This document shows, one piece after another, positions 149 to 15,676 of a stretch of DNA of 15,676 nt (positions are counted from its first letter, which is position 1; every line of letters begins with the position of its first letter). The position numbers were made by a program, and so were the translations under genes. This stretch comes from Verrucomicrobiota bacterium (GTDB lineage: Bacteria; Verrucomicrobiota; Verrucomicrobiia; Opitutales; Cerasicoccaceae): positions 1-15,676 of the forward strand of contig JBCBUK010000032.1 of NCBI GenBank assembly GCA_039818205.1. Direction: 5' to 3'. Under the pieces are notes generated by a model that did not search any database, was not told where the DNA came from, and saw only the letters and a program-made list of their open reading frames with translations.

Positions 149-1978
149 CTAAAAGCTCGTTACGCCTCCCGATGCGGTCCCGTCGTTGCCGTTGGGAGAC
201 ACGTCATAAACTTCGCCTGAACCGCCTAGGCTGTTCATCGGGTAGGCTGACGTGACGGCAGACGAATTATTCAGCGCCCAGGGGATCGCGCCCTCCTGAT
301 AAATCAAAGTTCGTTCAGACTCGGAAAGCGCCTTGTCTACCAGGATCAACTGCGAAACCATACCCGGATAATATGCTGCCGAATTGTTGATTGAGCCTAC
401 ATAAAGCGACGCGGCATTAGACAGGCTGGTCACTGCGGTTGGGTCAGCGGATCCCGTGGAGACGTTGTTTATATACAGCTTCATCCCGGTCGAACTGCTC
501 ACATCGACAATGGCCGTCACGTGGATCCATTGGCCATTATCTAAGCCCGATGAACTGACTACGGAAACATTCGTTGTTCCGTCGTTTAATCGGAATGTTA
601 TTGCACCGAGATTTGATATCGAAAAGTTAAAAGCAGGTGTGCCCGACTTTGAATAAAGCAAGCCGCTAGTTGCCGAAATATCCTTACAATTAATCCAAAA
701 CGCGACAGACCAATCCGTCGTCATATCTTGGTCGAAAATGTTGCCTAGGTTAATCGTCCCGTCGACACCATCCAGGTGGATACCCAATTGCGGCTTAGCA
801 ACGATCACACCCGCATTGTCCCAAGCGCTACCGCTGATGCCACCAGAGCTAAACTTAATGACATCTTCCCCCCCCTGCTCGAGCGTCCAAGAACCGCCAC
901 TCTTTAGCACCTGAACAAGGTCCAGGCTATCATTCGTCACCTTCTCACGCGTCGTGGGTCCAGTCAAAGGCGAAGGCAAACCGAGGTCGGTGCAAATCCA
1001 GTTGGCGAGGACCACGTTTGCGGCAATGTCCGCATGCGTGTCGTCGCGGGATAGTCCATACTTGCTAAGATTCGCCACCGCGCTGCCGAACGCTTCAAAG
1101 CCGCTATAGAACGCAAACTCGTGCTCCTCGCATTTCTCGAGCATGGCGTCATTGGTAGCCTGAGTCACCGAATCAGAGGCATCTAGAATGGTCGGTATCG
1201 GACCGAGTGCCGCGACGCTCGGATAACGGGTATTGTCTGCCGGCGCTCCACTCATCCAACCCGCAATAGCTTCGAGTGCCGCCGGTTGTTCAGAGCTCCC
1301 ACTGTCGGCAAAGGCGACCGTCAGCAAAGAGGGTTGAACTTCAGAAATGATTCCTTGGCCTACCCCATCAGCAAGGACAACCAAACTAGTGGACGGTTGC
1401 AGGCTGGAGACCGCAGCATCAATGATGATCACCTCGGGAACGTCGTCGCGATAGATCAAGCAACCCAAGACTTTGACCGTTCCGCTCGCACCCGTGACCT
1501 TTACGGCAATGTCTTCAGTAGTAGAGCGACGGATCGTTGCAACGGCAAGCGAGGTGGCCGCATCATCCGAGTCGACCGCTGAAAGTTCTGCCGAGAACCC
1601 CGAGGAAATGCTTGAATTGGAAACCTCAACATCAAAGGTTCCGCCGCCCGATTCTTTGACGTAAAGCACATCGATGCGGTTAGCATCAACGAGCGAATCG
1701 CCCTTCTGAAAAAAGGTTACGTCTTGCGCGCTCGGAATCGAAAAGTAAGTGCCACAAGGCGATATCGTATAGTCGGGAGTTGCAACCCGTTGGCCCCCGC
1801 CATCGTTTTTGACGTAGTGGGTAACGCTGGCTGAGTAATCGAAGTCCATGTAATGAGCAACCAGGACACCATCCTTTTCCGAGTTCGGACCATAGGCCCG
1901 ATTAGCTGGCACGATCTTATCGGGGCACTCGGTCGAGCTAAGCGTCGGCCCACTGAATGAGCGCCCGGAAAGTGGCAC
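149..1978 (-). CDS. C-terminal part of a large virion/tail-associated protein: SGNH-hydrolase-like region plus LamG/concanavalin-A-like domain
   Basis: LamG-like pattern (WSVAFWIN...WIHVTAIVD...KLYINN...LYVG...GMVSQLILVDKALSESE) and SGNH block V-like DDTH. No convincing start or RBS; the first ~20-28 codons probably belong to the opposite-strand gene. The SGNH block I (GDS) lies in the + ORF instead. Confidence 0.7.
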   Translation of the reverse strand: MPLSGRSFSGPTLSSTECPDKIVPANRAYGPNSEKDGVLVAHYMDFDYSASVTHYVKNDGGGQRVATPDYTISPCGTYFSIPSAQDVTFFQKGDSLVDANRIDVLYVKESGGGTFDVEVSNSSISSGFSAELSAVDSDDAATSLAVATIRRSTTEDIAVKVTGASGTVKVLGCLIYRDDVPEVIIIDAAVSSLQPSTSLVVLADGVGQGIISEVQPSLLTVAFADSGSSEQPAALEAIAGWMSGAPADNTRYPSVAALGPIPTILDASDSVTQATNDAMLEKCEEHEFAFYSGFEAFGSAVANLSKYGLSRDDTHADIAANVVLANWICTDLGLPSPLTGPTTREKVTNDSLDLVQVLKSGGSWTLEQGGEDVIKFSSGGISGSAWDNAGVIVAKPQLGIHLDGVDGTINLGNIFDQDMTTDWSVAFWINCKDISATSGLLYSKSGTPAFNFSISNLGAITFRLNDGTTNVSVVSSSGLDNGQWIHVTAIVDVSSSTGMKLYINNVSTGSADPTAVTSLSNAASLYVGSINNSAAYYPGMVSQLILVDKALSESERTLIYQEGAIPWALNNSSAVTSAYPMNSLGGSGEVYDVSPNGNDGTASGGVTSF

Positions 1979-2000
1979 CTGGGATTATTCTGCCGATGGC

Positions 2001-3050
2001 GTGGTGTTGACGGGTACGGCGGCGGGCTTGGATTTCGATATCTCTGCCACGGCTCTGAAGACGGCTATTGAAGCAAACATCACGCAAGTGGTTGGCGGCG
2101 CTGCTGTCGTGGTCAATGTGAGCTTACTTTCGCTCGGCTCATACCAGATTGAATACACGACGCCGGGCGCATCGGACATCCCCGAGGGTGCAATTGACGC
2201 CGATAGCCTTGTTCCGTTTTCGTATGGGACGGTTGAAGAGGTTCGCGCTGGTGCGGTCGGTCAGAATGCGCTTCACGTTGTTATCCTCCGGCAAGACATC
2301 TTGGCGTCTCAAGGCGTTTGGACAGCCAACACATCGGACCAGAACTGGACCGCTCGGCTCAATCTGAACACCGATGAGATGGTGCGTTTCGCCGCTTCGC
2401 AAGCGTCCGATGATTTCGAAGTCGCGATGCATATTCGCGTGAAGGATGGAAGCGGCAACCTTGTTACCGAAGAGCAAAAGACAATTGAGATAAGCGCTGG
2501 TGTGATCAACCCGTCAACGAGCACGCCGCGGGACAAGGCTAGCTATTATACGATTGAGCAGAGCGATGAGCGGTTTGCGCAATCGGCGGAGATTGAAGGC
2601 ACGCGCTATAAGAATCGCTGGCCACTTGCCAGTCTTCAGCGGTCGCTTGCTCTGGCGCAAAGCGATTCCAAAGACTACGAGGGTAGCGGATTTCGGATCA
2701 CTGCACGGACGATTTCAGCCGTCACCAATGCAAACCCGTGCGTTGTTACTCTGAGCTATGGAAGCGTCTTTGATGACTACCAAGACGGCGATTACGTGAT
2801 GTTTAGCGACGTTGGCGGAATGACTGAGCTAAATGGCAATGCCTATCAGATCACACGCTCCGGCGCTGATATTACCTTGACTGGGGTAGACTCTACGGCC
2901 TTTGGCACTTTCACGTCCGGCGGAAAGGCTCGGCGTCTGAATGATCAGCGGGTGCTGATTATGAACATGGGAGATTCGTTCAACGTCGAGAAAGCGTTTC
3001 GCTATGTTTCTGACTCACTAGCCCGCGCCAATGGCGATCCGAAAGCGTAA
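2001..3050 (+). CDS. Internal/N-terminal fragment of a phage structural protein with an E1-FCCH-like beta domain and SGNH block I; inverted relative to its neighbours
   Basis: Frame is open from 1896 and reads as protein before the GTG (HSVELSVGPLNERPESGTWDY). FCCH-like motif ISAVTNANPCVVT...DGDYVMFSDVGGMTELNGNAYQI...DSTAFGTFTSGG. Ends shortly after LIMNMGDS. Confidence 0.75.
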   Translation: MVLTGTAAGLDFDISATALKTAIEANITQVVGGAAVVVNVSLLSLGSYQIEYTTPGASDIPEGAIDADSLVPFSYGTVEEVRAGAVGQNALHVVILRQDILASQGVWTANTSDQNWTARLNLNTDEMVRFAASQASDDFEVAMHIRVKDGSGNLVTEEQKTIEISAGVINPSTSTPRDKASYYTIEQSDERFAQSAEIEGTRYKNRWPLASLQRSLALAQSDSKDYEGSGFRITARTISAVTNANPCVVTLSYGSVFDDYQDGDYVMFSDVGGMTELNGNAYQITRSGADITLTGVDSTAFGTFTSGGKARRLNDQRVLIMNMGDSFNVEKAFRYVSDSLARANGDPKA

Positions 3051-3123
3051 ACGAAGACGCTACCCCAATATTAACGGCGGCTTGCTGGCTCGCCTCAATG
3101 GCCCATTTCAGCGGATTCTCCAT
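2980..3123 (-). pseudogene. Truncated first post-capsid gene (MENPLKWAIEASQQAAVNIGVASSFTLSD..., 47 codons), head-tail connector position
   Basis: ATG at 3123 follows the capsid terminator and carries the GTTGAC-N14-ATG motif seen at four other gene starts. The ORF stops after running into the inverted segment. Confidence 0.5.
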
Positions 3124-3143
3124 ACCCATTCCAACTCGTCAAC
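3121..3143 (-). promoter_or_regulatory. GTTGAC-N14-ATG start-associated motif (copy 1)
   Basis: GTTGAC GAGTTGGAATGGGT ATG, directly after the terminator. Confidence 0.6.
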
Positions 3144-3149
3144 TAGGCC

Positions 3150-3181
3150 AAAAACAGGGCCGCCCATATTTGGGCGACCCT
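3150..3181 (-). terminator. Rho-independent terminator after the major capsid gene
   Basis: AGGGTCGCCCA-AATA-TGGGCGGCCCT (11-bp stem, one G-U pair) followed by GTTTTT on the minus strand. Confidence 0.8.
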
Positions 3182-3213
3182 TGGAGGCGGTATTATCTAC
3201 GGTGGGAATAAAT

Positions 3214-4092
3214 TTATGCGGAAACCGCAAGCGCACCAGTGCCCGCGCCAACAGCGCCGTAGGCAGAACCAAAGCAGAGATCAAACGATGCCCAGCGTGC
3301 CCGAGTTGCCCGGCTTACCCATTGGTTGAACTCAACCGACAAGCCAAGATCAGGCAGCTCGATCACCTGTTGAGACGTCATGTCCGAACTCACACTTTCG
3401 TGCATATCAGGACGGCGACCGACGGCAGCAATCGCTTGCGGCGAACAGGCAAAGCCATAGGCATTAGTCTCAGCGGCCGACCAGCGCGAAGTATGAATGA
3501 TCTCATCAAAACCATACGCACCAGCAAAGCGCCCAGCGCTTACCTGGAAGCTGTCGGTATTCGTTGGCAACAGCTTCGAGAAAGCGACACCATCAAGGTA
3601 AAGGAACTTTTGATCGGTATCCTCAATCGCGGCCCAAAGATCCTGAATCTCACTGGTGCCAAAAGCACTTTGCGCACCTGTGTGCGCGGCGGCACCGAAG
3701 TTGGCGGCCGTAAGGTTTGCGAACACCCGATCATGGATCGCGTTGGCAAACGTGTCGAGATTGATCACCATTTGGCGCTCGAACTTCTGCGATTGCTGCA
3801 ACTCAACCGAGGTCAAATGGAAACTCTTGGAAATGTGCTCGGGCTGGATCAACACACTGCCTACAGTGGTGTCTCCGGTTTCAAAACTGGATGGGTTAAC
3901 CTGAACCGAACCGGTGCCGGTCGCAATCGCAACCCGAATCGGCTGCAACGTTCCGTCAGCAGTGCGAACGGCAGGATCAGCGGAAAAGTCCATCGTCAAT
4001 CCGCGGAGTGTAGCAAGGCGATTGTTCAAAACCGTCAAGCCCTTATCCGCGACGATATCAGCAATCAGATCCGCGCTAAGTGTATTGGCCAT
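3214..4092 (-). CDS. Major capsid protein (292 aa, probable HK97 fold)
   Basis: Lies directly after the prohead protease, starts MANTL, has an AT-rich leader, is Ala/Gly/Ser-rich and is followed by a strong terminator. Confidence 0.8.
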   Translation of the reverse strand: MANTLSADLIADIVADKGLTVLNNRLATLRGLTMDFSADPAVRTADGTLQPIRVAIATGTGSVQVNPSSFETGDTTVGSVLIQPEHISKSFHLTSVELQQSQKFERQMVINLDTFANAIHDRVFANLTAANFGAAAHTGAQSAFGTSEIQDLWAAIEDTDQKFLYLDGVAFSKLLPTNTDSFQVSAGRFAGAYGFDEIIHTSRWSAAETNAYGFACSPQAIAAVGRRPDMHESVSSDMTSQQVIELPDLGLSVEFNQWVSRATRARWASFDLCFGSAYGAVGAGTGALAVSA

Positions 4093-4131
4093 AATATTAT
4101 TGCAATAGGATGTTAGTGAATGCAGCCTTGC

Positions 4132-5232
4132 TTAACTTTGCTGCGTGAAATCGATTTCGGGGTGCGATTCGCGAAACTTCTTGCGCGCCTCGCCCGGTGC
4201 CATTTTGGCGTATTCAGCAATCAGCTGAGCATTACCCCGAGGGGCCGCGTCAACCGCGCCCGTAACCGGAGGCACGCCCAGCTCGCCCAATTGTTGGACA
4301 ACGCGGCTAGAAAGTGATTCCTCCATGCGCTCCAGCGCGGCGGCATGATCAAGTTTCATTTGCTGGCTTGCCGCGGAAAGCGCATCCCGCTCGGACTCAA
4401 GATCCTTTGCACATTCCTGCGCAACCGCCAAACTCGCATGCAGTCCGTCATTCTCCTCGCGGAGACTGAAGATTGCTTCCGCATTGTCGGCAAGTTGCTG
4501 GAGGTTGCCACGCTGCTCAGCTTGGAGGCGCTTCACGTAGCGATCCAGCCGCTCGCGAGTCATCTCGCCAGGCTCGGGCTGATCCTCCGCCTTCGCGGTG
4601 ATGTCTGAAAAGTTCTCCGGAAGCTTCAGCTCAGAGAGCACGCCGCCAAAATCATCGAGCGCCACCGCCCGGGATTCGTGGGTGATCTCATCAATGAATC
4701 CGTGTTCCTTCGCCTCGGACGCAGTGAAGTATGTTTCTTCATCCATCCACTTTGAAATCTGCTCCTCAGTCTGCCCGGACTTGGCCGCGTAAACGTCAAC
4801 CGCATCGGCTTTCATTTTGTCGAGCAGGTCGGCCTCTTTGCGCAGATCATCAGCCTCGCCGATCCCAACCGATTTCGGGTTGTGAATCATGTAAAGTGAA
4901 TTCGCGGCCATCCGCACCTCAGTACCAGCCAAAGCGATGATCGAGGCCATGCTTGCTGCCAGACCTTCAATCTGCGTCACAACGCGGGCCGGATGGGAAA
5001 GAATTGCATTGTAGATCGCGTTACCGTGCATAACGGATCCACCCGGGCTATTAACGTGCAGAACGATCTCTTGCACATCGCCGAGCGAGTTAAGCTCATC
5101 AATGAAGCCCTTGGCCTCAACGCCGCCGCCAAAAAAATCTTGGCCAATGACATCATAGATATAGATGTCTGCCGAATTCGATTCGGCGGTATGTTCCATC
5201 CGGAACCAAGGACGATTTTGATTTTTGCTCAT
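4132..5232 (-). CDS. ClpP-type (S14) prohead maturation protease with a C-terminal coiled-coil scaffold-like extension
   Basis: IYIYDVIG, VNSPGGSV, GLAASMAS (catalytic Ser), MIHNP (His), ETYFTASEAKEHGFIDEI, then ~150 aa rich in A/E/L/Q. Start placed at ATG 5232 (MSKNQNRPWF) from the GTTGAC motif. Confidence 0.92.
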   Translation of the reverse strand: MSKNQNRPWFRMEHTAESNSADIYIYDVIGQDFFGGGVEAKGFIDELNSLGDVQEIVLHVNSPGGSVMHGNAIYNAILSHPARVVTQIEGLAASMASIIALAGTEVRMAANSLYMIHNPKSVGIGEADDLRKEADLLDKMKADAVDVYAAKSGQTEEQISKWMDEETYFTASEAKEHGFIDEITHESRAVALDDFGGVLSELKLPENFSDITAKAEDQPEPGEMTRERLDRYVKRLQAEQRGNLQQLADNAEAIFSLREENDGLHASLAVAQECAKDLESERDALSAASQQMKLDHAAALERMEESLSSRVVQQLGELGVPPVTGAVDAAPRGNAQLIAEYAKMAPGEARKKFRESHPEIDFTQQS

Positions 5233-5253
5233 GTCCTCGGCGGCATTGTCAAC
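5230..5253 (-). promoter_or_regulatory. GTTGAC-N15-ATG motif (copy 2)
   Basis: GTTGAC AATGCCGCCGAGGAC ATG, just after the portal terminator. Confidence 0.65.
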
Positions 5254-5266
5254 CCCGGCAGCGGGC

Positions 5267-5300
5267 AAAGAAAATGCCGGGCACTATCCGCACCCGGCAC
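5267..5300 (-). terminator. Rho-independent terminator after the portal gene
   Basis: GTGCCGGGTGC-GGATA-GTGCCCGGCAT (11-bp stem with G-U pairs that form only on the minus-strand RNA) followed by TTTCTTT. Confidence 0.7.
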
Positions 5301-5328
5301 ACTCAACAAACAAAACATACATGAACAC

Positions 5329-6828
5329 CTAATCCGATTCGTCAACCGCGGGCGCTGATGCTCCCGGCGGCGCGTCGCCCGGCTTCGAAAATGTTCCGAG
5401 TTCATCCGGATCTAAACCGCGCTCCTCGGCCAATTGCTTTTTGTAGTCGAGATAGTCCGCCTGCTCGGAAAGAATTGCTTTCGCGTCGAGGTTTCGCATC
5501 TCACACGCCTCGGGCACACTCAACAAACCGGCGCGAATATCCTCGCGGATTTCCTGGTGATACTTCCCGTCGTCGACCGTAAAGCGAGCGGGACGGGAAA
5601 ACCCAAGCTCAAACCAATCGGACGGCAGGGCCGACCAACCAGGATCGTATGAACCGGCAACGCGCAGCTTTTCAAACTTCGCCACAATGTAGACCGCCGC
5701 GCGCGTCCAAGCGCCCAGCAAGAGATCACCACGGTCAAAAACAATTCCGTTGATGTCACTTTGGAAAGCGCGCACCCCAGCGCCGCCGACCTCACTTGAA
5801 TCAACCATTTCGCGCCGCCAATTTATACCATAGAGCGCGCGACTCTCCACCAGTTTATCAAATTCCAACTGCCCGTTTGATGGGTCGTTCGCGGTATGAG
5901 GCTGAATCTTATTGCCGTTTCGAATATAGCGGATCATCCCGCCTTCAATTAGCTCCGTTTGCAGCTGACGATTCACCGGGGAATATCCGCCGACCGCTTG
6001 CCGACCGGTATCGGTTTTACCCTGCTCGTTACTCTCAATCAGCGTCAACGCACTATGAACCTTTTGCTTGATTCGCTGCAGATCCCGCGACTCTTTCAAA
6101 TCGTAGAATGAAAGAAGTCCGTATGATATTGGCGGGATCCCGCGACCCTGGCTGAACCAAACCGGATCGTAAACATGAATCATATCCCGGGCCGAAATGT
6201 CTTCGAAGTTTTCTTCATCCAACATCAAACGATAGGCCACCGGATGGGCTTGCTTGTTGTAGATGATGCCATTTCGAATCATCAGCCCCTTATATGGCCC
6301 CGCCTCGATCTCAGACTCCAAAGGCAAGGTCTTAGGCTGACCAATGCGGTGACTTTCCAAAAACTGAAGTCGCGGAAACCCGCTCTCGGCTTCCGTAAGC
6401 AGAATAAAGAATTCACCATCAACATCGAGCAGCTTGCTCGCAATCCGGATGTTCTTGCGAAAACTAAAGGGAGCACCCCGCACATCCAGCACACCATCAA
6501 TTCGACGGAAAAGCTTATGGACAGCATCACGGAAATCATCGGCTTCGCCGTCATACTTTAAGCGCCAAGCCCGCCCGTACACATAGCGGGATTTCTGGTG
6601 AACCGCACCCGCAACAGTGTCGCTGGATTGATAGATAAAACGACCATCCGCAAGCATTATCCGGTGCTTGTGGCGCGAGACCAAGTTCACGATATCGTCA
6701 TCAAGTCGGGGCCGGTTAGCATGATAGCCGTCGCGCTGAGTGTCCGGCAGAAGCCCGGACCCCGAAAAGGTAAACCCGAGACCCTTCTTTGCCCGTTTGA
6801 AAAATCCTGAAATTGCCTTGCGCGCCAT
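5329..6828 (-). CDS. Portal protein, lambda (gpB) family
   Basis: 499 aa between terL and the protease. Motifs DVDGEFFI, PRLQFLESHRI, NGIIYNKQAHPVAY, MIHVYDP..SQGRGIP, and C-terminal IRAGLLS are typical of lambda-family portals. Confidence 0.9.
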   Translation of the reverse strand: MARKAISGFFKRAKKGLGFTFSGSGLLPDTQRDGYHANRPRLDDDIVNLVSRHKHRIMLADGRFIYQSSDTVAGAVHQKSRYVYGRAWRLKYDGEADDFRDAVHKLFRRIDGVLDVRGAPFSFRKNIRIASKLLDVDGEFFILLTEAESGFPRLQFLESHRIGQPKTLPLESEIEAGPYKGLMIRNGIIYNKQAHPVAYRLMLDEENFEDISARDMIHVYDPVWFSQGRGIPPISYGLLSFYDLKESRDLQRIKQKVHSALTLIESNEQGKTDTGRQAVGGYSPVNRQLQTELIEGGMIRYIRNGNKIQPHTANDPSNGQLEFDKLVESRALYGINWRREMVDSSEVGGAGVRAFQSDINGIVFDRGDLLLGAWTRAAVYIVAKFEKLRVAGSYDPGWSALPSDWFELGFSRPARFTVDDGKYHQEIREDIRAGLLSVPEACEMRNLDAKAILSEQADYLDYKKQLAEERGLDPDELGTFSKPGDAPPGASAPAVDESD

Positions 6829-6849
6829 ATCCGCAAGGACCGCGTCAAC
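6826..6849 (-). promoter_or_regulatory. GTTGAC-N15-ATG motif (copy 3)
   Basis: TAG|GTTGAC GCGGTCCTTGCGGAT ATG. The motif plus spacer fills the whole intergenic gap. Confidence 0.65.
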
Positions 6850-7164
6850 CTACCGACGAAAAACCACGCTCGTGCGGTCGGTCAACTCGCCGGCCGAATC
6901 GCGCAACCAGGTTTCCAACTCGTCGTCAGTGAAACCACTAACCACCCGCCAGGCAGTGTATGCTAGATCATTGATGCGCTCCGAGGCGTAGCCGTCCGGA
7001 ACATTGAATGTTGTCGTCTGACCGGCCAGCGTAAAAGACGCCACTTGCGAACCGCCATTTTTGAAGGTCGAATACTGACCCATCGACAACACCTCGAGCG
7101 CCGCAATCGTCGATTGCACATTTTTGCCCACACTTACCCAAATCGAAAAAACGAGTGATCGCAT
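6850..7164 (-). CDS. Small head-associated protein in the lambda gpW (head-tail joining) position, 104 aa
   Basis: Between terL and portal. ATG 7164 (MRSLVFSIW) avoids overlap with terL and carries the GTTGAC motif. Function inferred from synteny only. Confidence 0.7.
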   Translation of the reverse strand: MRSLVFSIWVSVGKNVQSTIAALEVLSMGQYSTFKNGGSQVASFTLAGQTTTFNVPDGYASERINDLAYTAWRVVSGFTDDELETWLRDSAGELTDRTSVVFRR

Positions 7165-7185
7165 GCCTATGAGTTGGGCGTCAAC
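7162..7185 (-). promoter_or_regulatory. GTTGAC-N15-ATG motif (copy 4)
   Basis: GTTGAC GCCCAACTCATAGGC ATG. The TGA inside the hexamer is the terL stop codon. Confidence 0.65.
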
Positions 7186-8932
7186 TCTCGGAATACTGCT
7201 CGCCAAAGATCCCGAGCATCGAGGCGCAAACGACCTGCATCTTCTCGCAGTCGAAAAAGTGGTCGTCATCCTTGGCCCGGTACCATTCCCAAACCAGGGA
7301 GTTATCGCTGTTTCGCGTTTTGCTCCGACGGACCCAAGAATTCAATTGATCGATATACGTCTTAGGCACATCATCAGCATGTGTCCATAGGCGCTTGGGG
7401 TCACCGATGCTGCGCAGCGTAACCAAGCGATTGCGGGCGGGCGGCTCAGAATATGGAAACTCCATCGCATAGCGAGAGCCTTGGCTAGTGGTTCCTTCCC
7501 AGGCATCTATAAACCGCGCCGGCGCGTACATCCGTCGGACTTTATCCTCGTGGAGATAAGTTTTCTCAGTGTCACCGATAAACACCGCCCAACCATAGGA
7601 AGCCGCCAAGCGGCGGACGTTGTCTGTGTTGTAGTTGCCATCCAGGAAGACCCGACAGTTTCCAGCCATATCGGGATCAAGCGTTGGAATCGCCCAGCGC
7701 TTCACCGCCTCATGAATCGGCTCTAGAGTCAGGACCCGTTCACAAGCAAGCAAACGACTTTCCGCCGTCACCTGATCCCACGCCCGGGCCACAAAGTAGT
7801 AATGGTCCTGTTGAACGTCGATCGTGATAAACGTGAACCAACCCTCGGGTGGATCTTCGCCTAGCTTGTAACCGCCCGCGGCGCGCTCAGGAGCCGCGGA
7901 TGGGATGTAGCGGTGCTCACTCCAGGATTCCCCCAACTGCTTACGCACAAAGTTTTCGAGTAGTTCCAGGTTGCCGCGATCCTTGGCGAAGATCGCTTTC
8001 GCCCAGAGTTCAACGAGATCCGGCCAAGGAACATGCAAAATTGCATTATATTGAAACCATTCCACCCGCCCATCACTGTCAGGATTAAGCGAGATATAGC
8101 GGCCCGTGTCGTTTAGGCGAACCAACACCCCATCATACCAATCGATCTTTTTCTCGCAGTGCTCGCAAACGTAGCCAACACTTGAGCGAAGCGCTTGCCA
8201 ATCCATCGTCCCGTCGGGTCGAATGCAACTCTTAGGGTCGCGAAACTCCATGCCGCCACGCGGCACCTCACCATTCTCATCAGCAGGCCAAGACCAACGC
8301 ACTTGCATCATTTCACCACAACAGGGGCATTCCCAATGCGCCCACCGTTGAGTTGATTCTGCGTAGAGCTCGTGCAGCTCGCTCCCTTCAGTCGGACCAC
8401 TGCTCGGGATAAACACTTGGCGGGACCAAGGGTAGCTCGTTAGCCGGTCAAATATTTGCTTCATCCATCCCGGGTCATAGCTCCAGGCCTCATCGAGCAC
8501 CACGCGCTCTAGGGTCTTGGAATTCCGATTGGACAGCACCGCCGCCGACAGGAGCAGAATCGACCCGTAAACAGTTTTGATCCGCTCCTTAGTGAACCCG
8601 CTTCGATCGTTTGGAATGATCCTGAAGAACGCCAAGGCTTCCTTAACCAAGGAAGAAAATTTCAAGTTGTAGAAATCATCAATCGCATCCAACGAGCGAT
8701 CGTAATATGCCGATCGACCCGGAGCAATAAAGGCCATGAAGATCAAAAAAAGCTGCGCGGTCAGCGTCTTGATAAACTGAACGGATCCACAGAGCACCGT
8801 GATCCCGCCGCGCTTCTCACACGCAATCCGCAAAGGCCCAACAAGCCAAGGATGCTTGCGACGATCAAATTTGCCGTAGTCAAGCGCGATGTGCTTTTCG
8901 CACCAAGCAACCGGATCCTTAATCCGAAGCAT
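7181..8932 (-). CDS. terL: Terminase large subunit, lambda GpA family
   Basis: N-terminal PVAWCEKHI, variant Walker A GSVQFIKT, Walker B VVLDE, CPCCG...CEHC zinc-binding pair, nuclease TIDVQ, C-terminal DHFFDCEKMQ. GGAGG lies 9 nt before ATG 8932. Confidence 0.92.
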   Translation of the reverse strand: MLRIKDPVAWCEKHIALDYGKFDRRKHPWLVGPLRIACEKRGGITVLCGSVQFIKTLTAQLFLIFMAFIAPGRSAYYDRSLDAIDDFYNLKFSSLVKEALAFFRIIPNDRSGFTKERIKTVYGSILLLSAAVLSNRNSKTLERVVLDEAWSYDPGWMKQIFDRLTSYPWSRQVFIPSSGPTEGSELHELYAESTQRWAHWECPCCGEMMQVRWSWPADENGEVPRGGMEFRDPKSCIRPDGTMDWQALRSSVGYVCEHCEKKIDWYDGVLVRLNDTGRYISLNPDSDGRVEWFQYNAILHVPWPDLVELWAKAIFAKDRGNLELLENFVRKQLGESWSEHRYIPSAAPERAAGGYKLGEDPPEGWFTFITIDVQQDHYYFVARAWDQVTAESRLLACERVLTLEPIHEAVKRWAIPTLDPDMAGNCRVFLDGNYNTDNVRRLAASYGWAVFIGDTEKTYLHEDKVRRMYAPARFIDAWEGTTSQGSRYAMEFPYSEPPARNRLVTLRSIGDPKRLWTHADDVPKTYIDQLNSWVRRSKTRNSDNSLVWEWYRAKDDDHFFDCEKMQVVCASMLGIFGEQYSES

Positions 8933-9632
8933 TCTCAACGACCTCCAGATAGCTGGATTCAGCATCCAGGATGATCTTCACAAACCACTCCGGCAGCGCG
9001 GGTGAACCCTGCACCCGCGCTGCCCTTTTCAGTGGATCGAACAAGCAACGATATAGAATTCTTGGCTTCAGTTCTGCGTAAACCTCGGCCGGGAAATCGA
9101 CCACCGCCAAACGTTCACAAACATCATGCAGCAACATCTCAACAGATGCCGTGCCCGCCGAGGCAAAGGCAAAAACCAATCGTTCAACCTCCTCACGCGG
9201 AAGTAGCTCCCCCCGATCAACGCCCATCTTTTTGGCGTGCGCTTCCGACTTTTGAATTTGCGCGTCGACCTTCAAAAAAGCTTCCCGGGACCCTTTCGCC
9301 CGGACCTCATCCCGCTCCTGTTCTGCCCACTTGGTTAACTCAAAGTAGTATTCGCGGAGCGCATACACGTCACCGCCTGATTCCATCGAAGGAGGAGGCG
9401 AAGCCGCCGCGCTGGCGTCATCCGATGCGTCAGGCTGTCCCGCGCGATCATTTGCCAATATCCGGCGAGCGCGGGCCAAGGCACTAGCCGACGGACGTTT
9501 CATTTGCAATATCACGTGGGCCATCGCCTTGTCGTTGTCGACGGGATGTCCTGCCTTGATCCACTTCTGGGCAGTCCGGAGACCGACGCCCCAAGCGTCT
9601 GCAACTTTCGCCGATAATAAATCCTTTTCCAT
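8919..9632 (-). CDS. Terminase small subunit (Nu1-like, N-terminal winged HTH)
   Basis: Directly upstream of and overlapping terL. HTH-like KVADAWGVGLRTAQKWIKAGHP and RGELLPREEV motif typical of Nu1-like proteins. Alternative GTG start at 9635. Confidence 0.75.
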   Translation of the reverse strand: MEKDLLSAKVADAWGVGLRTAQKWIKAGHPVDNDKAMAHVILQMKRPSASALARARRILANDRAGQPDASDDASAAASPPPSMESGGDVYALREYYFELTKWAEQERDEVRAKGSREAFLKVDAQIQKSEAHAKKMGVDRGELLPREEVERLVFAFASAGTASVEMLLHDVCERLAVVDFPAEVYAELKPRILYRCLFDPLKRAARVQGSPALPEWFVKIILDAESSYLEVVENASD

Positions 9633-9640
9633 CACCTACT

Positions 9641-9744
9641 TAACGAATTCCCTAACGAAACGAACGAACTTTCAGAACATCAAACGCACAAAAAAACGCA
9701 CGGAGTCGCCTAACCTCGTGAGAAATAATCATGCAATAGATTCC
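9641..9744 (-). other. Candidate cos-type packaging site
   Basis: Just upstream of terS: GGAATCT, 17 nt, then a 22-bp partial dyad CACGAGGTTAGGCGACTCCGTG, followed by short repeats (AAACGCAC x2 and AACGAA x4 on the + strand). The layout resembles lambda cosQ-cosN-cosB. Confidence 0.45.
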
Positions 9745-10247
9745 TTACCGGGGGGCCTTAGCACGATCTCGAGCCGACGGCTCAATCCCTCCATCGCCAG
9801 GCGTTCGCCCGGGTTGAAGTCTTCGGTTCGACCAAGGTAAGCCATGAGCTTATTGATCCACTGCATATGCTGCGGACAATGCGTCACGCGCTCCTCGGCT
9901 GGTGGCTTCTCCGACTTCGGAACGACGCCGAGGTTCAAGGCTAACTGTCTTGGATCCGCAGTGAGTGCGCGTTCATACTTGCAAGAACGCTTGAGGAAGT
10001 CTTCCCCGAGCTCGGCTTGCAACCATGCCCGATACCCCTTTGCACCGGTGATAGTCTTGACTTGACCCAGTAGGGCGCCAACCCCCCTCGCCTCCAGCAC
10101 CACCTGGGCGGCCATCTCGTGACACTCGTTGATGCGTGAGCAAAGCGCCTCATCCGCTTGGCGAATGGCTGGCGCTAGTTCCTCGAGTGTCGTTCCCAAC
10201 GTCGAGTCACCCACTATCTCAACCGCTACACATTCCGCTTCTTGCAT
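9729..10247 (-). CDS. Phage hypothetical protein, DUF3102-like
   Basis: INECHEM...EARGVGALLGQVK...GYRAWL resembles the DUF3102 pattern. Overlaps the upstream gene, with GAGGG before the ATG. Confidence 0.6.
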   Translation of the reverse strand: MQEAECVAVEIVGDSTLGTTLEELAPAIRQADEALCSRINECHEMAAQVVLEARGVGALLGQVKTITGAKGYRAWLQAELGEDFLKRSCKYERALTADPRQLALNLGVVPKSEKPPAEERVTHCPQHMQWINKLMAYLGRTEDFNPGERLAMEGLSRRLEIVLRPPGKESIA

Positions 10248-10585
10248 TCCCTCACCTTTGGTCGATGGTTAATGTTTCGAACGCCGAACATTTCCCGTAG
10301 TTCTTCGTCCGCCTCTTGTATGGCTGCGCGCGTCAACTTGGAGCGCCGAGCGATATCGGAAAAGTTTTTGAAGCCGGGCACCTCCAGCCCGAGGTTGATT
10401 CCGAGCAGAATCACCCGAGCGCCAATTGACACCAAACTACCACCACTGAGTAACCAATAAATCAAGCGAGACACCACAGCGGCGGCTTCGCGTTCGGGTT
10501 CATTTTTTGGCTCGATGTGATCCACTGGATCATCGAGGTAAGACGGCTCCCGACAGTCTTCCAAACTGACTTCGTTTTGATTCAT
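10226..10585 (-). CDS. Small protein with a C-terminal helix-turn-helix (sigma region-4-like), putative transcription regulator
   Basis: NFSDIARRSKLTRAAIQEADEELRE fits an HTH pattern. AAAGGGG upstream. First gene after the replication module. Confidence 0.65.
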   Translation of the reverse strand: MNQNEVSLEDCREPSYLDDPVDHIEPKNEPEREAAAVVSRLIYWLLSGGSLVSIGARVILLGINLGLEVPGFKNFSDIARRSKLTRAAIQEADEELREMFGVRNINHRPKVRECKKRNV

Positions 10586-10607
10586 AAATTCAACCCCTTT
10601 AGGCCCA

Positions 10608-10867
10608 ATGACGGCATGACGGCATATCCGCTATACTTATCTCTATACACACACACGCGTATATATTTTGTATATTGATTTACTGTCATGCTGTCATTTT
10701 CCCTTCTATACCGCATAAACTCTGGACACTTTTGTGACGGCATGGGTCAAACCTCACTGTCATGCCGTCACGATTTCCGGCGTTTTCGACGCATTTGTGC
10801 CGATCGCCACTCAATTTGCGACCGACCAAAAACACCCATGACAGCAACTTGCCCAAATCATGACGGG
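10608..10867. repeat. Iteron-like 8-bp repeats (RTGACRGB) in both orientations around an AT-rich tract; putative replication origin
   Basis: Nine copies: + strand at 10608, 10616, 10734, 10838, 10860; - strand at 10682, 10690, 10756, 10764. Lies in the largest intergenic gap, directly downstream of the helicase gene. Confidence 0.7.
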
Positions 10868-10897
10868 AATTTCGCGCCGAATGCCACACCTCCATCA

Positions 10898-12421
10898 TCA
10901 TTTCCCCACCGTTTCCACGAGTTCATCCCGGGCGTGCACATTGGAATTTTGGCTCAAATACCAAATACGTTTGCTCGAATAGCGCTTCATATACGCGCGC
11001 TCCGGATAGCGTGATTCAATGGCCTTCAGGTGCCGCCCAAACCACGCTGCGCTCATGCGGTTGATCTCCATTTGCGTAAGGTTCCATTCTTCCTTGTTGG
11101 TCCGGAACACTTCGATCAAGTCCTGGCACGTGCCCGCCCAGCACTGCGACGGCATCTCCATGCGGTTAAAGGAATTCTGCCGGGTCGGCTTAAGGATAGT
11201 TGCCTCGAGCAGCGCCCACAGCTCAGCCCAGGGCGTCAATTCGTCCATCAGATCCACGATCTCCGGGTGATGCCACGGAATGACGGGAAATCGATTCGTC
11301 GGCCCATACTTCTCCGGCAGCTCAAAGCGGTTCAGGAGCCAATCGACAAAGAATGGCAGCTCATACATTACCGCCTTCCAGAAAAGCCGTTGCTGGGCCG
11401 TGGTCGTCGTCGGCATGGGCATATCTGCCCGATACCCTTTCAGCACCACGCACTTATCGTGAATCATGTCCATGGGCGGCAATACGCGCAAACTATCCTG
11501 GTCGACATTGCACACCATCACCACCCGCCAGAGCGGGTCCAGTTCCAGCGCATCGGTCCCCTTCCCTTCGCACCGGCCAGCCGACCCCACCACCAATTGC
11601 TTGGTAATCTGCGCCAGGTAGGCCCGGCTTTTTATATCGGTCTTGTCAGCCTCATCATCAACCAAGAGCAGCGGACTTTGAAACAGGTCCTTGTTAAAGC
11701 CACTTTCCCCCGTCATCCACTTATAGGGAAACCCGCGGCGCCGGCCGGTCGTAATGCGGAGCATCTCCGTAAACCGGGTCTTACCGCAGTTCCACTCGCC
11801 CGCCATAAACAGCGCCGGGCTTTTCGGTGGACCATAGCGCGTATCCACACCCCGATAAACCGCCTGCAGGAAATCACGCCACCAGCCAAACACAATACCG
11901 AGTTGGCTCAGGCGTTCGCCATGCTCATCGGGCGGGCTCACAAATAGATTCGTGAGAAATCGGGAAATGATGGGCCAGCCTTCGGCCGCAGGCTCGGATT
12001 CATCCACCACACGCCGCCAGGCCTTCTCGCTCTCTGCGAGTTGCGCCTCTGGCACGCCTACCCCATCAAAGAGCGCTTGGCGCTCGGCGTACTGCCAGCC
12101 ATCGCCCGCGCATTGCGGCTCGATCAGCTCCGCCTCCCGGGGGCACAACACCCGCCGACCGCCGATCGTGTGCAGCCCGGTCTTGTATCCGGCTATCTCC
12201 CCCACGAAATCGACCGTGCGATTCGTTTCAACATCCGTCAGCACCCGGTCCGCGGGCGACAGCACGACGCCCTCCGCGCGTTCTTCCTTCGTCAGCGAAG
12301 TGCGAAAGCCCTGCATGAGTAGCCACCGCCGCATCGACTGCTCCGGCTTGCTCACCCATTCGTCGTTTTCATTCAAATGCCAAAAGCGCCGCGCGTCGTG
12401 ATAAATTTCCAGTTCCGCCAT
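10898..12421 (-). CDS. P-loop NTPase, SF3/D5-like replicative helicase (primase-associated type)
   Basis: Walker A GEWNCGKT, FNKDL, Walker B LLLVDDE, EGKGTDA, VMVCN (sensor/motif C). Near the primase gene and the repeat-rich origin candidate. Confidence 0.8.
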   Translation of the reverse strand: MAELEIYHDARRFWHLNENDEWVSKPEQSMRRWLLMQGFRTSLTKEERAEGVVLSPADRVLTDVETNRTVDFVGEIAGYKTGLHTIGGRRVLCPREAELIEPQCAGDGWQYAERQALFDGVGVPEAQLAESEKAWRRVVDESEPAAEGWPIISRFLTNLFVSPPDEHGERLSQLGIVFGWWRDFLQAVYRGVDTRYGPPKSPALFMAGEWNCGKTRFTEMLRITTGRRRGFPYKWMTGESGFNKDLFQSPLLLVDDEADKTDIKSRAYLAQITKQLVVGSAGRCEGKGTDALELDPLWRVVMVCNVDQDSLRVLPPMDMIHDKCVVLKGYRADMPMPTTTTAQQRLFWKAVMYELPFFVDWLLNRFELPEKYGPTNRFPVIPWHHPEIVDLMDELTPWAELWALLEATILKPTRQNSFNRMEMPSQCWAGTCQDLIEVFRTNKEEWNLTQMEINRMSAAWFGRHLKAIESRYPERAYMKRYSSKRIWYLSQNSNVHARDELVETVGK

Positions 12422-12442
12422 TACCGTGTCAAATTCGTCAAC
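12419..12442 (-). promoter_or_regulatory. GTTGAC-N15-ATG motif (copy 5)
   Basis: GTTGAC GAATTTGACACGGTA ATG. The first G is the last base of the upstream TAG, and a second TTGAC is nested in the spacer. Confidence 0.6.
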
Positions 12443-13389
12443 TATTCAAATTTCTCCGCTAAGGACTCTCCATGCCGTTGCCGCCACTGCTGGAACTTGT
12501 CCATTTCCAAGGGCTCTAAGTCGGTCCACCCGATGGCCCACCCCATTAGCCACTCGACCCACGGCGGGTTCAGACTCCCACCAACTCGCGTTTCCTCCGT
12601 TGAAAGGGCATTGCAAAGCCTCACCTGCTGACCCTTCGCCTTCCGCTCTTGGGCTGTTCTCTTGTTCCAGCCCGTGCCATCGCTCGCGGTCGGAGTCGGT
12701 AGATACTTTGGACGCTTCGGATCGTTCACGGAGTATTGCGCTTGGATCATGTCGCCCATCGTCATCATTGAGCTTGTCGGCGTTGGCCAGAGTTTCACGG
12801 CTGTCGCAAGGTTCGGGCCCTTGCCACCCCCGCGCTCTGACCTCGGTAGGGCCCGAGTATGGGCAAAACGCTTCAAATTCTTCTCTGGCTCCATCGCGCA
12901 GGGCGTTGGCCACAATCCAGATTCGGTCTCGCTTGTGAGGGGCACCGACGTGATGCGCTCCCACAATTCCCCATCGCGCATCATACCCCATTTGGGCAAG
13001 GTCAGCGAGGACCATTCCAAGGCCTCGGGAAACAAGCAGTGGTGAGTTTTCCACGAACACATATCGCGGTCGAACGTCACGGACAATCCGCGCCATCTCG
13101 GCCCAGAGTCCGGAGCGTTCTCCGCCGATTCCTGCGCCTTTTCCCGCGGCGCTGATGTCCTGGCAGGAAAAGCCGCCCGAAACGACGTCAACAAGGCCTC
13201 GCCATGGTCGACCGTCAAAGCTTCCCACGTCAGACCAAATTGGGAAAGGCGGGAGAACTCCGTCGTTTTGTCTCTGTGCCAAAATGGATGCGGCGTAGAG
13301 ATCACGTTCAACGGCGCAGATGCACCGCCATCCGAGCAACTCGCCTCCGAGTATTCCGCCACCAGCGCCTGCGAAAAGAGCCAACTCAT
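12442..13389 (-). CDS. C5 cytosine methyltransferase 'beta' polypeptide (motif IX plus putative target-recognition repeats), in an alternative frame inside the alpha gene
   Basis: 315-aa open frame with LWPTP/LWPTP/YLPTP repeats and LNPPWVEWLMGWAIGWTD, equivalent to C5-MTase motif IX, which the alpha frame lacks. Confidence 0.8.
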   Translation of the reverse strand: MSWLFSQALVAEYSEASCSDGGASAPLNVISTPHPFWHRDKTTEFSRLSQFGLTWEALTVDHGEALLTSFRAAFPARTSAPREKAQESAENAPDSGPRWRGLSVTFDRDMCSWKTHHCLFPEALEWSSLTLPKWGMMRDGELWERITSVPLTSETESGLWPTPCAMEPEKNLKRFAHTRALPRSERGGGKGPNLATAVKLWPTPTSSMMTMGDMIQAQYSVNDPKRPKYLPTPTASDGTGWNKRTAQERKAKGQQVRLCNALSTEETRVGGSLNPPWVEWLMGWAIGWTDLEPLEMDKFQQWRQRHGESLAEKFE

Positions 13390-13393
13390 TCAC
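12446..13393 (-). CDS. DNA (cytosine-5)-methyltransferase 'alpha' polypeptide
   Basis: Motif I LFAGAGG, IV GGFSCQD, VI VENS, VIII PHKRDRIWIVA, X RLRALGNGQVP. Likely GTG start at 13393 (MNELALF); the track start is 13414. Confidence 0.92.
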   Translation of the reverse strand: MNELALFAGAGGGILGGELLGWRCICAVERDLYAASILAQRQNDGVLPPFPIWSDVGSFDGRPWRGLVDVVSGGFSCQDISAAGKGAGIGGERSGLWAEMARIVRDVRPRYVFVENSPLLVSRGLGMVLADLAQMGYDARWGIVGAHHVGAPHKRDRIWIVANALRDGAREEFEAFCPYSGPTEVRARGWQGPEPCDSRETLANADKLNDDDGRHDPSAILRERSEASKVSTDSDRERWHGLEQENSPRAEGEGSAGEALQCPFNGGNASWWESEPAVGRVANGVGHRVDRLRALGNGQVPAVAATAWRVLSGEI

Positions 13394-13439
13394 CGCGCCG
13401 CCGTTTCTCTTCACAGACTGGATATTGCCTTAGTACCAT
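13386..13439 (-). CDS. 17-aa mini-ORF (MVLRQYPVCEEKRRRGE), putative translational coupler
   Basis: Its start overlaps the primase stop (TGATG) and its stop overlaps the beta-MTase start (ATGA). Confidence 0.4.
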   Translation of the reverse strand: MVLRQYPVCEEKRRRGE

Positions 13440-15091: not shown

Positions 15092-15338
15092 CATCCCAAT
15101 CCCCCTTTAAGACGCACGTCCATTGGCCTGCCTCTGATCCATCCTCGCGAAAATCCATCGCTCCGTCCCCATCTAGGTTTTGAATCCAATCAACCTCGAT
15201 TTCCTCGACATCCAGAATCGAGCAACCATCGATTTCCAGCGGATGGCCAAAAGAGCGTTTATCAACTCTCACCGGCTTCCGTGCATGGCCTTGGTCGATC
15301 AGGTCGCCAAGTATTTGATGTAGTTTCCTTATAGTCAT
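15069..15338 (-). CDS. Hypothetical phage protein (89 aa)
   Basis: ATG with an AT-rich leader, MTIRKL..L start, acidic globular composition, co-oriented with its neighbours. Confidence 0.7.
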   Translation of the reverse strand: MTIRKLHQILGDLIDQGHARKPVRVDKRSFGHPLEIDGCSILDVEEIEVDWIQNLDGDGAMDFREDGSEAGQWTCVLKGDWDATPPQQH

Positions 15339-15362
15339 AACGCTTTCTCTATAGTTAATTGT

Positions 15363-15605
15363 TCAGTCGCTCGCCGGTTCGGGGTTATGGGTGTCACCGT
15401 AGGCATTCACCCAGTCGGGAAGTTCTTTGCCTGCGCGAAAATCCAAGGCGTATTGCACGGCCTTTGCTGAATCGACAACGCGACCGGATAACCTCACCGA
15501 CCAAACAATGTTACCAAAACGATCTCGTCGTATAACATCCCCGGTTCCATTCCCACAGAAACGCATGATCCATCTTACCTGAGTTGATGCTCGTCTCTCC
15601 TTCAC
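15363..15605 (-). CDS. Hypothetical phage protein (80 aa)
   Basis: GTG start overlaps the upstream stop (GTGA), preceded by purine-rich GGAAGGGGG. Co-oriented. Confidence 0.6.
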   Translation of the reverse strand: MKERRASTQVRWIMRFCGNGTGDVIRRDRFGNIVWSVRLSGRVVDSAKAVQYALDFRAGKELPDWVNAYGDTHNPEPASD

Positions 15606-15676
15606 TCTCCGCCCCCTTCCTGATCAGGATTAGATTCGCGAAGACCCTTAGAGATATTCGAAAGCACTATTCCGCG
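15602..15676 (-). CDS. 3' end of an upstream gene (partial)
   Basis: Open frame from the window edge (RGIVLSNISKGLRESNPDQEGGGE*) ending in a TGA that overlaps the next GTG. Confidence 0.45.
   Translation of the reverse strand, partial: RGIVLSNISKGLRESNPDQEGGGE

Follow-up and report, generated by a model that had tools for sequence, protein, structure and literature searches.

The window analysed here, all 15,676 nucleotides (nt) of contig C32 of the Verrucomicrobiota genome G000, carries a prophage in which five minus-strand genes are preceded by a short box, TTGAC, ending 14 or 15 nt before the ATG start codon. The box recurs close to gene starts in related phages and prophages, replaces ordinary promoter spacing at orthologous genes, is followed at a fixed distance by an initiator-like step with no −10 element in between, and co-occurs with the gene for a small helix-turn-helix (HTH) protein. 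We lean, with slightly more confidence than doubt, towards a phage-factor-dependent and mostly leaderless promoter whose hexamer would lie at about −19 to −15.

A TTGAC box close to prophage gene starts

The five GTTGAC-N14/15-ATG sites reported in the preliminary description are all present on the minus strand, where 0.27 would be expected and none of 200 shuffles reaches five. GTTGAC itself occurs 15 times in the window (14 on the minus strand) against 7.1 expected, and five of 200 shuffles have as many. The sites, a candidate sixth and the neighboring hairpins are as follows.

12419..12442, minus strand: TTGAC box, 15-nt spacer and ATG of the helicase-like gene; transcription start predicted at 12422 or 12421 from the initiator step
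7162..7185, minus strand: TTGAC box overlapping the terminase stop codon, 15 nt and ATG of the 104-amino-acid (aa) gene; predicted start 7164
6826..6849, minus strand: TTGAC box, 15 nt and portal ATG; the spacer can pair with early coding sequence
5230..5253, minus strand: TTGAC box, 15 nt and ATG of the ClpP-type head protease; downstream of a terminator-like hairpin
3121..3143, minus strand: TTGAC box, 14 nt and ATG of the truncated post-capsid gene; downstream of a terminator-like hairpin
4230..4254, minus strand: candidate sixth box, 16-nt spacer, G-T-A step and ATG of a 3-codon open reading frame (ORF); located in the 3′ end of the protease gene and 140 nt upstream of the capsid gene
5274..5300, minus strand: terminator-like hairpin between the portal and protease genes
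3156..3181, minus strand: terminator-like hairpin after the capsid gene

The candidate sixth box (hexamer 4249-4254) is not conserved at the same place in relatives and may be a chance occurrence; the box upstream of the portal gene is not present in close portal orthologues. A further minus-strand TTGAC, at 10332-10337, lies within the recognition-helix codons of the HTH gene with an A-C-A step at position 15, and is possibly the promoter of the downstream 172-aa gene, or chance.

There are several shared features. First, G is at −3 in all five sites and GG at −4/−3 in four, the former because all five carry a purine-pyrimidine-A ending at position 15 or 16. Second, the hexamer overlaps or abuts the upstream stop codon at the helicase gene, the 104-aa gene and the portal gene. 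Third, the two hairpins are of 11 pairs each, although the window total of 22 terminator-like sites is not above the 17.4 in shuffles. Fourth, the N-termini encoded by the 104-aa, portal and protease genes agree with those of relatives, so that their ATGs are taken as true starts; the label 'gpW-like' previously given to the 104-aa gene had gene position as its only basis, and no family match was found. The post-capsid gene does have a box at its ATG, but its ORF has just 47 codons and is apparently truncated. Two parts of the original definition need adjustment: TTGAC(A) rather than GTTGAC is the conserved unit, the leading G not being kept in relatives (where A follows TTGAC in about 65–90% of sites), and the spacing is a sharp minimum at 14 nt with a tail of longer distances, not a fixed value.

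Short and long spacing, predicted start sites and the host background

Related phages supply evidence for the promoter reading. A portal alignment gave 167 viral loci, of which the best 80 were used, many of them near-copies; 74 include the start of the gene after the terminase gene. TTGAC lies upstream of this gene in all 74, at either 16–19 nt (39 loci, the short type) or 31–38 nt (35 loci, the long type), and at no distance between. The protease gene has a box at 15–21 nt in 37 of 37 short-type loci and none within 48 nt in 34 long-type loci, and a second gene pair shows the same swap, 31 versus 17 nt. Verrucomicrobia phage P8625, the nearest annotated phage (portal identity 45%), is of the long type, with TTGAC 31 nt before four genes and 36–39 nt before three, and with no TTGAC at 14–22 nt before any of its 52 annotated starts. 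Long-type sites have T and A at the −10 position in 69% and 65% of cases, a signal absent from short-type sites. The short and long distance distributions both show a sharp start followed by a tail and are offset by 16 nt, the shape expected if the minimum corresponds to a leaderless start. In a portal tree of 34 dereplicated rows each type forms one branch, and the window groups with the short type, on a branch of great length and with weak support (83/63). Two long-type promoters of P8625 (locus L020, 5412-5447 and 10736-10771) also contain an inverted pair, GTATC...GATAC, between TTGAC and ATG, possibly an operator.

The distance from the box to the probable transcription start appears constant. 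Among 16 non-redundant short-type sites with the ATG at 17–22 nt, TA occupies positions 15–16 after TTGAC in 13, the next best position reaching 6/16; where the ATG is 35–42 nt away a pyrimidine-purine step ends at position 16 in five of five sites (four of which precede one same tail gene, with an A-rich leader). At prophage sites with 14- or 15-nt spacing a pyrimidine precedes the ATG in 40/47 cases, against 166/366 controls. The step thus stays 15–16 nt from the box though the ATG moves, which argues for a transcription start fixed to the box, 15–16 nt after TTGAC, with the ATG at or after it.

Ordinary signals do not account for these sites. All contain the core of the sigma70 −35 hexamer TTGACA; the −10 position, 16–18 bp downstream, falls within the coding region rather than ahead of a start before the ATG, and the usual 30–31 nt geometry is kept by the host and by long-type phages, in keeping with the earlier statement that this is not an ordinary sigma70 promoter. 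None of 16 short-type and 14 prophage sites has TAnnnT at positions 1–9 past the box. Sigma54 promoters have a conserved −24 element upstream of the −12 element, and the 10 nt upstream of TTGAC in prophage sites show no such consensus. The reported lack of a Shine-Dalgarno (SD) sequence is borne out: the 3′ end of the host 16S rRNA is a standard anti-SD, and SD-like words are depleted at box sites (2/60 versus 49/296 in prophages and 0/29 versus 6/88 in short-type phages).

Of all 5-mers ahead of host ATGs in G000, TTGAC shows the strongest positional enrichment (about 3,390 starts, called by simple ORF rules as first ATGs, which miss GTG starts and add noise). Counts are 36 at 30 nt and 23–24 at 31 nt over a background of 5.6 per position, while those at 14, 15 and 16 nt are 8, 2 and 5. 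The genome-wide enrichment at short spacing anticipated in the preliminary description is therefore absent from the host; its peak is at 30–31 nt only and short spacing is phage-specific. The match between long-type spacing and this host peak supports a swap with ordinary promoter spacing. Host TTGAC-30 sites have a weak −10 (T at −7 in 23/36) and mostly a pyrimidine before the ATG, and the TTGAC-30/31-ATG sites would be leaderless sigma70-type promoters. Host starts seldom have SD words, and at the TTGAC-30/31 sites T at −7 alone is conserved in a very weak −10, suggesting promoters that are leaderless and depend mainly on the −35. At called starts, no box is present in three other prophage-like contigs of G000.

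A co-occurring HTH protein and its gene neighborhood

The candidate specificity factor is encoded within the same prophage.

10226..10585, minus strand: 119-aa HTH protein whose predicted fold may resemble sigma region 4; candidate for the factor that gives the box its specificity

Homologues of this ORF sit upstream of the terminase genes in short-type phages. A whole-record search of 49 records finds the gene in seven, all of short type, including 4/4 short-type records at least 63% complete, compared with 0/9 long-type records at least 68% complete, P8625 among the latter. In 12 relatives with a portal-bearing prophage it is present in 7/7 with short sites and 0/5 without. Single-protein scans with the window protein found no viral loci. 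A longer subfamily, with a profile match of 97%, was found in 159 bacterial genome stretches (79 loci listed, nearly all titled Verrucomicrobiota). Across 85 loci, TTGAC lies at 14, 15 and 16 nt from 47, 18 and 14 of the 1,172 starts downstream of the HTH gene, with no more than six at other distances, and from 12, 8 and 2 of the 1,065 starts upstream of it. A short site occurs within 2.5 kb downstream of an HTH homologue in 41/59 prophage loci, against 1/59 for the control window. The prophage-type HTH gene itself has TTGAC at 31 nt in five cases and at 14–16 nt in none.

Region 4 of sigma-A is the top fold match of the AlphaFold model (predicted local distance difference test score, pLDDT, 82), with Z 6.2, root-mean-square deviation 3.7 and 63 aligned residues, tied with other HTH proteins. 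Profile searches of the PDB give only weak HTH matches, with RpoS/RpoD region 4 at E 0.3–0.8; in the Atlas the protein falls in unnamed viral clusters, and the nearest named one, Sigma70_r4 in 10% of members (score 0.76), is a lead only. In Pfam the window protein has no match, and its homologues score 13–14 bits with PF04545, the sigma70 region 4 domain, below the cut-off of 24.

A variant of the box bears on how it is read. In a prophage of genome G068, CTGAC is present at 9/32 ORF starts (at 15–17 nt) and TTGAC at none, and the recognition helix of the host sigma-A region 4 is identical to that of G000. CTGAC with an unchanged sigma-A helix speaks for a reader supplied by the phage and against host sigma or the ribosome, and the box specificity looks to be phage-encoded. 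Two protein relatives are known, without DNA context. This prophage (loci L329 and L291; G068:C27, about 471000-496000) carries its boxes upstream of the terminase-small gene and of head and tail genes, and its diverged HTH gene is on the opposite strand.

In prophage-type HTH genes (L108:837, L146:12783 and L109:18690) the 3′ codons contain the TTGAC box of the next, overlapping gene. Two non-phage integrative elements (L142:10968-12533 and L155:11357-18068) have a 93–105-aa HTH homologue and a 14-nt box before an integrase-like gene; in L155 the HTH adjoins a DUF3102-like gene, and the 172-aa neighbor of the HTH gene in the window may also be DUF3102-like.

The minus-strand gene order in the window is a DNA methyltransferase region, helicase-like NTPase, two small genes, terminase, portal, ClpP-type protease and capsid-like protein.

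10898..12421, minus strand: helicase-like NTPase gene (DUF5906)
7181..8935, minus strand: terminase large subunit, lambda gpA type
6850..7164, minus strand: 104-aa gene between terminase and portal, homologue of P8625 gp08
5329..6828, minus strand: lambda-family portal gene
4132..5232, minus strand: ClpP-type head maturation protease gene
3214..4092, minus strand: major capsid-like gene, weak homologue of P8625 gp11, with an A-rich leader and no adjacent box

The prophage is probably defective, since the post-capsid ORF ends at 47 codons, a tail-like fragment is inverted, and the tail genes of related phages have no match on the contig. The region 149-3123 holds the truncated post-capsid gene, the opposite-strand tail-like fragment (2001-3050) and then a LamG-domain tail-like ORF with no clear start; its junctions show no obvious repeat, and it is either a decayed or rearranged prophage or a misassembly. 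At the right end (15281-15676), 63–77 nt are common to the ends of contigs C1, C31 and C58, which suggests that the element is joined to the chromosome. Two minus-strand ORFs at 12442-13414, in different frames and with nearly full overlap, encode a 322-aa C5 DNA methyltransferase and a 315-aa product matching PHROG 1008. A second 16S rRNA match in G000 (locus L002, on the 1.7-kb contig C49) scores below the main 16S.

Proposed mechanism, alternatives and known systems

By the usual account, a bacterial promoter melts with the help of a required −10 element and has its −35 word about 30 bases from the start. In the mechanism that we propose TTGAC would lie at about −19 to −15, and transcription would begin 15–16 bases downstream, usually on the A of the start codon. 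The HTH protein (10226-10585) would probably read the box and position host RNA polymerase. A cascade may follow: an ordinary host promoter would drive the HTH gene, whose product would then switch on the short promoters. Of the two roles offered in the preliminary description, a compact promoter giving leaderless mRNAs is the best-supported option. The argument from adjoining terminators is not general: a hairpin lies just upstream in 1/29 short-type phage sites and 0/60 prophage sites, using a crude detector that recovered just one of the two window cases. A translation-level role is less likely than a promoter.

Several observations weigh against the promoter reading. No −10 consensus is found in short-type sites, whose spacers are often GC-rich; a looser two-position pyrimidine-purine test (15/16) reached 13–14/16 at three other offsets; and with one branch per type on the portal tree there are about two independent contrasts. 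The fold match of the HTH model is within the range of ordinary HTH domains (CodY Z 5.9, AlpA 5.5), Foldseek returned nothing at E≤0.001, and hhalign of the HTH against host sigma-A gave a probability of 4.6%. Because one box, that of the helicase, precedes the HTH gene, the boxes are not purely late. At the gene that follows terminase, one RNA-library contig covers both the box and the predicted start, reflecting either read-through or DNA. The CTGAC switch is a single case, a search for further CTGAC loci finding none, and TTGAC is retained with two HTHs whose recognition helix has diverged as much. In a 401-genome phylum sample 40 of 54 terminase matches were examined (the others being four in G000, six already in the set and four more), and a first tally gave boxes in 3/8 HTH-positive and 6/32 HTH-negative loci (p=0.35). 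Two loci contribute to this non-significant result, as L317 uses GTG starts, with its box at 14 nt, and L291 has CTGAC instead of TTGAC. A recount gave 6/9 versus 5/31 (p=0.007), or 5/9 versus 1/31 when at least three sites are required, but it was post hoc (GTG starts, CTGAC and one borderline HTH at E 0.004 were added) and kin are not independent. Three near-identical HTH-positive loci are without boxes, and L296 has five boxes with no HTH found in its genome, G312; two other box-positive loci have an HTH gene elsewhere in the genome or just outside the examined stretch.

The same compact promoter could instead be read by region 4 of host sigma-A, freed from the beta-flap by a phage protein (the HTH as a sigma-4 mimic, or another) and sliding next to region 2. 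The box is identical to the −35 core of the host, TTGAC persists across HTH subfamilies alignable only at the profile level, and sigma-4 takes up a repositioned state in the lambda Q complex (PMC9388147) and is relocated by gp39 and AsiA (PMC3950348). This reading is nonetheless unlikely, given the CTGAC boxes of the G068 prophage beside an unchanged sigma-A helix and the want of a −10 box for region 2 to bind. We give no greater probability to a signal at the RNA level, in which UUGAC in a read-through mRNA would be the binding site of a phage factor, either a translational activator opening a hairpin at the start codon or a processing factor cutting 14–15 nt downstream to leave a leaderless mRNA. 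The missing −10 box and the contig spanning a box are compatible with such a signal, as is the finding that prophage-site spacers pair with their own early coding region more strongly than with others (−9.76 versus −8.11 kcal/mol; 0/200 permutations), which three window sites also do. Control genes show a smaller pairing effect of the same sign, however, and short-type marine phages none (103/200); a start hairpin would keep read-through RNA silent and be missing from a leaderless transcript, and therefore fits a promoter equally well. The swap with ordinary promoters at orthologous genes, the constant step at 15–16 while the ATG distance ranges from 14 to 42, and a co-occurring factor that is an HTH also speak for DNA rather than RNA. 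In metatranscriptome contigs of a short-type marine phage, which cannot show starts, three runs are evenly covered and DNA-like and the others sparse.

If the box were instead a site for pausing or for loading an antiterminator, as with lambda Q or AlpA, the HTH would be the antiterminator. In favor, this geometry was first seen in a Q-loading complex (PMC9388147), AlpA is among the fold matches (Z 5.5) and the HTH gene lies upstream of packaging genes. We consider this reading very improbable: the boxes are present in many copies at gene starts and not as a single site at a late promoter, no −10-like pause element follows them, and two window boxes lie downstream of terminators. Least credible, and already largely refuted, is that these are ordinary sigma70 −35 boxes with transcripts starting inside genes, or chance. 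TTGAC is indeed the host −35 core, and for one window box a weak match to a −10 lies in the coding region, at a distance of 16 nt. Against this, the conserved N-termini show that the ATGs are used, the shuffles never reproduce five sites, and 47 sites lie at exactly 14 nt among 1,172 starts.

If the phage-factor-dependent promoter is real, a promoter of 20 bases, its word shifted inwards by one and a half turns of the helix, would mean that the repositioned sigma-4 state, so far known from paused antitermination complexes, can drive initiation. More tentatively, and with doubt outweighing belief, it may represent a new promoter class that dispenses with the −10 and consists of a single −35-type word at −19 to −15 plus an initiator base. 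Its reader would be a stand-alone phage protein of 120 aa, sigma-4-like, that replaces sigma regions 3-4 on host polymerase. Across a large group of Verrucomicrobiota phages and integrative elements such promoters would form the usual middle/late switch, and their specificity could be reprogrammed, as from TTGAC to CTGAC. Natural pairs (short versus long at one gene, and TTGAC versus CTGAC with different HTHs) allow a direct test of the model, and Verrucomicrobiota, for which few genetic parts exist, would gain a useful tool in an orthogonal promoter that needs one protein.

No description of the element was found in open-access main texts, and in the main text of the P8625 paper neither 'promoter' nor 'TTGAC' occurs. 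Its closest counterparts in sequence are the sigma70-type leaderless promoters of the host and P8625, which share the hexamer core, orientation and kind of position and are interchangeable with it at orthologous genes; the box differs in being 16 nt nearer the start, lacking a −10, being absent from host genes and being linked to the HTH. The lambda PR′ pause element lies at +1 to +6. With this position, TTGAC and the start-equivalent base are 14 nt apart by our own count, which is also the modal spacing of the box. The PR′ sequence has TTGACT at −7 to −2 (PMC4604602), and in the Q-loading complex sigma region 4 is off the flap tip and on a −35-like site directly upstream of region 2, with region 3 displaced (PMC9388147). 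By analogy, a sigma-4-like domain at such a position on polymerase is structurally possible. The likeness is limited to this geometry, as the Q complex is a paused elongation complex at one site and requires a −10-like element (PMC9388147), whereas here there are many sites, none is followed by a −10-like pause element, and initiation is the proposed outcome.

The start-associated sequence (SAS) of Cluster K mycobacteriophages, a 13-bp AGGAG-containing repeat 3–7 bp from the starts of non-structural genes only, is likewise an oriented phage repeat of unknown function at a set distance before ATG (PMC3203893). The box is 5–6 bp, SD-free, at least 14 nt from the start and found mainly ahead of packaging and structural genes, and both an SAS and an ordinary SD site were rejected as its identity. 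Small phage proteins that redirect host RNA polymerase to phage promoters provide a further parallel: P23-45 gp39 and T4 AsiA, which relocate sigma-4 (PMC3950348), phiEco32 gp79/gp36 (PMC12276001) and D29 gp53 (bioRxiv 10.64898/2026.10.05.756390). Unlike the box, their promoters have a −10 or extended −10, or involve a full phage sigma, and the HTH protein has no sequence or fold match to these proteins beyond a generic HTH (gp36 chain, Z 5.0). While this architecture was not found described, the element appears to work most like phage promoter switching by such small polymerase-binding proteins.

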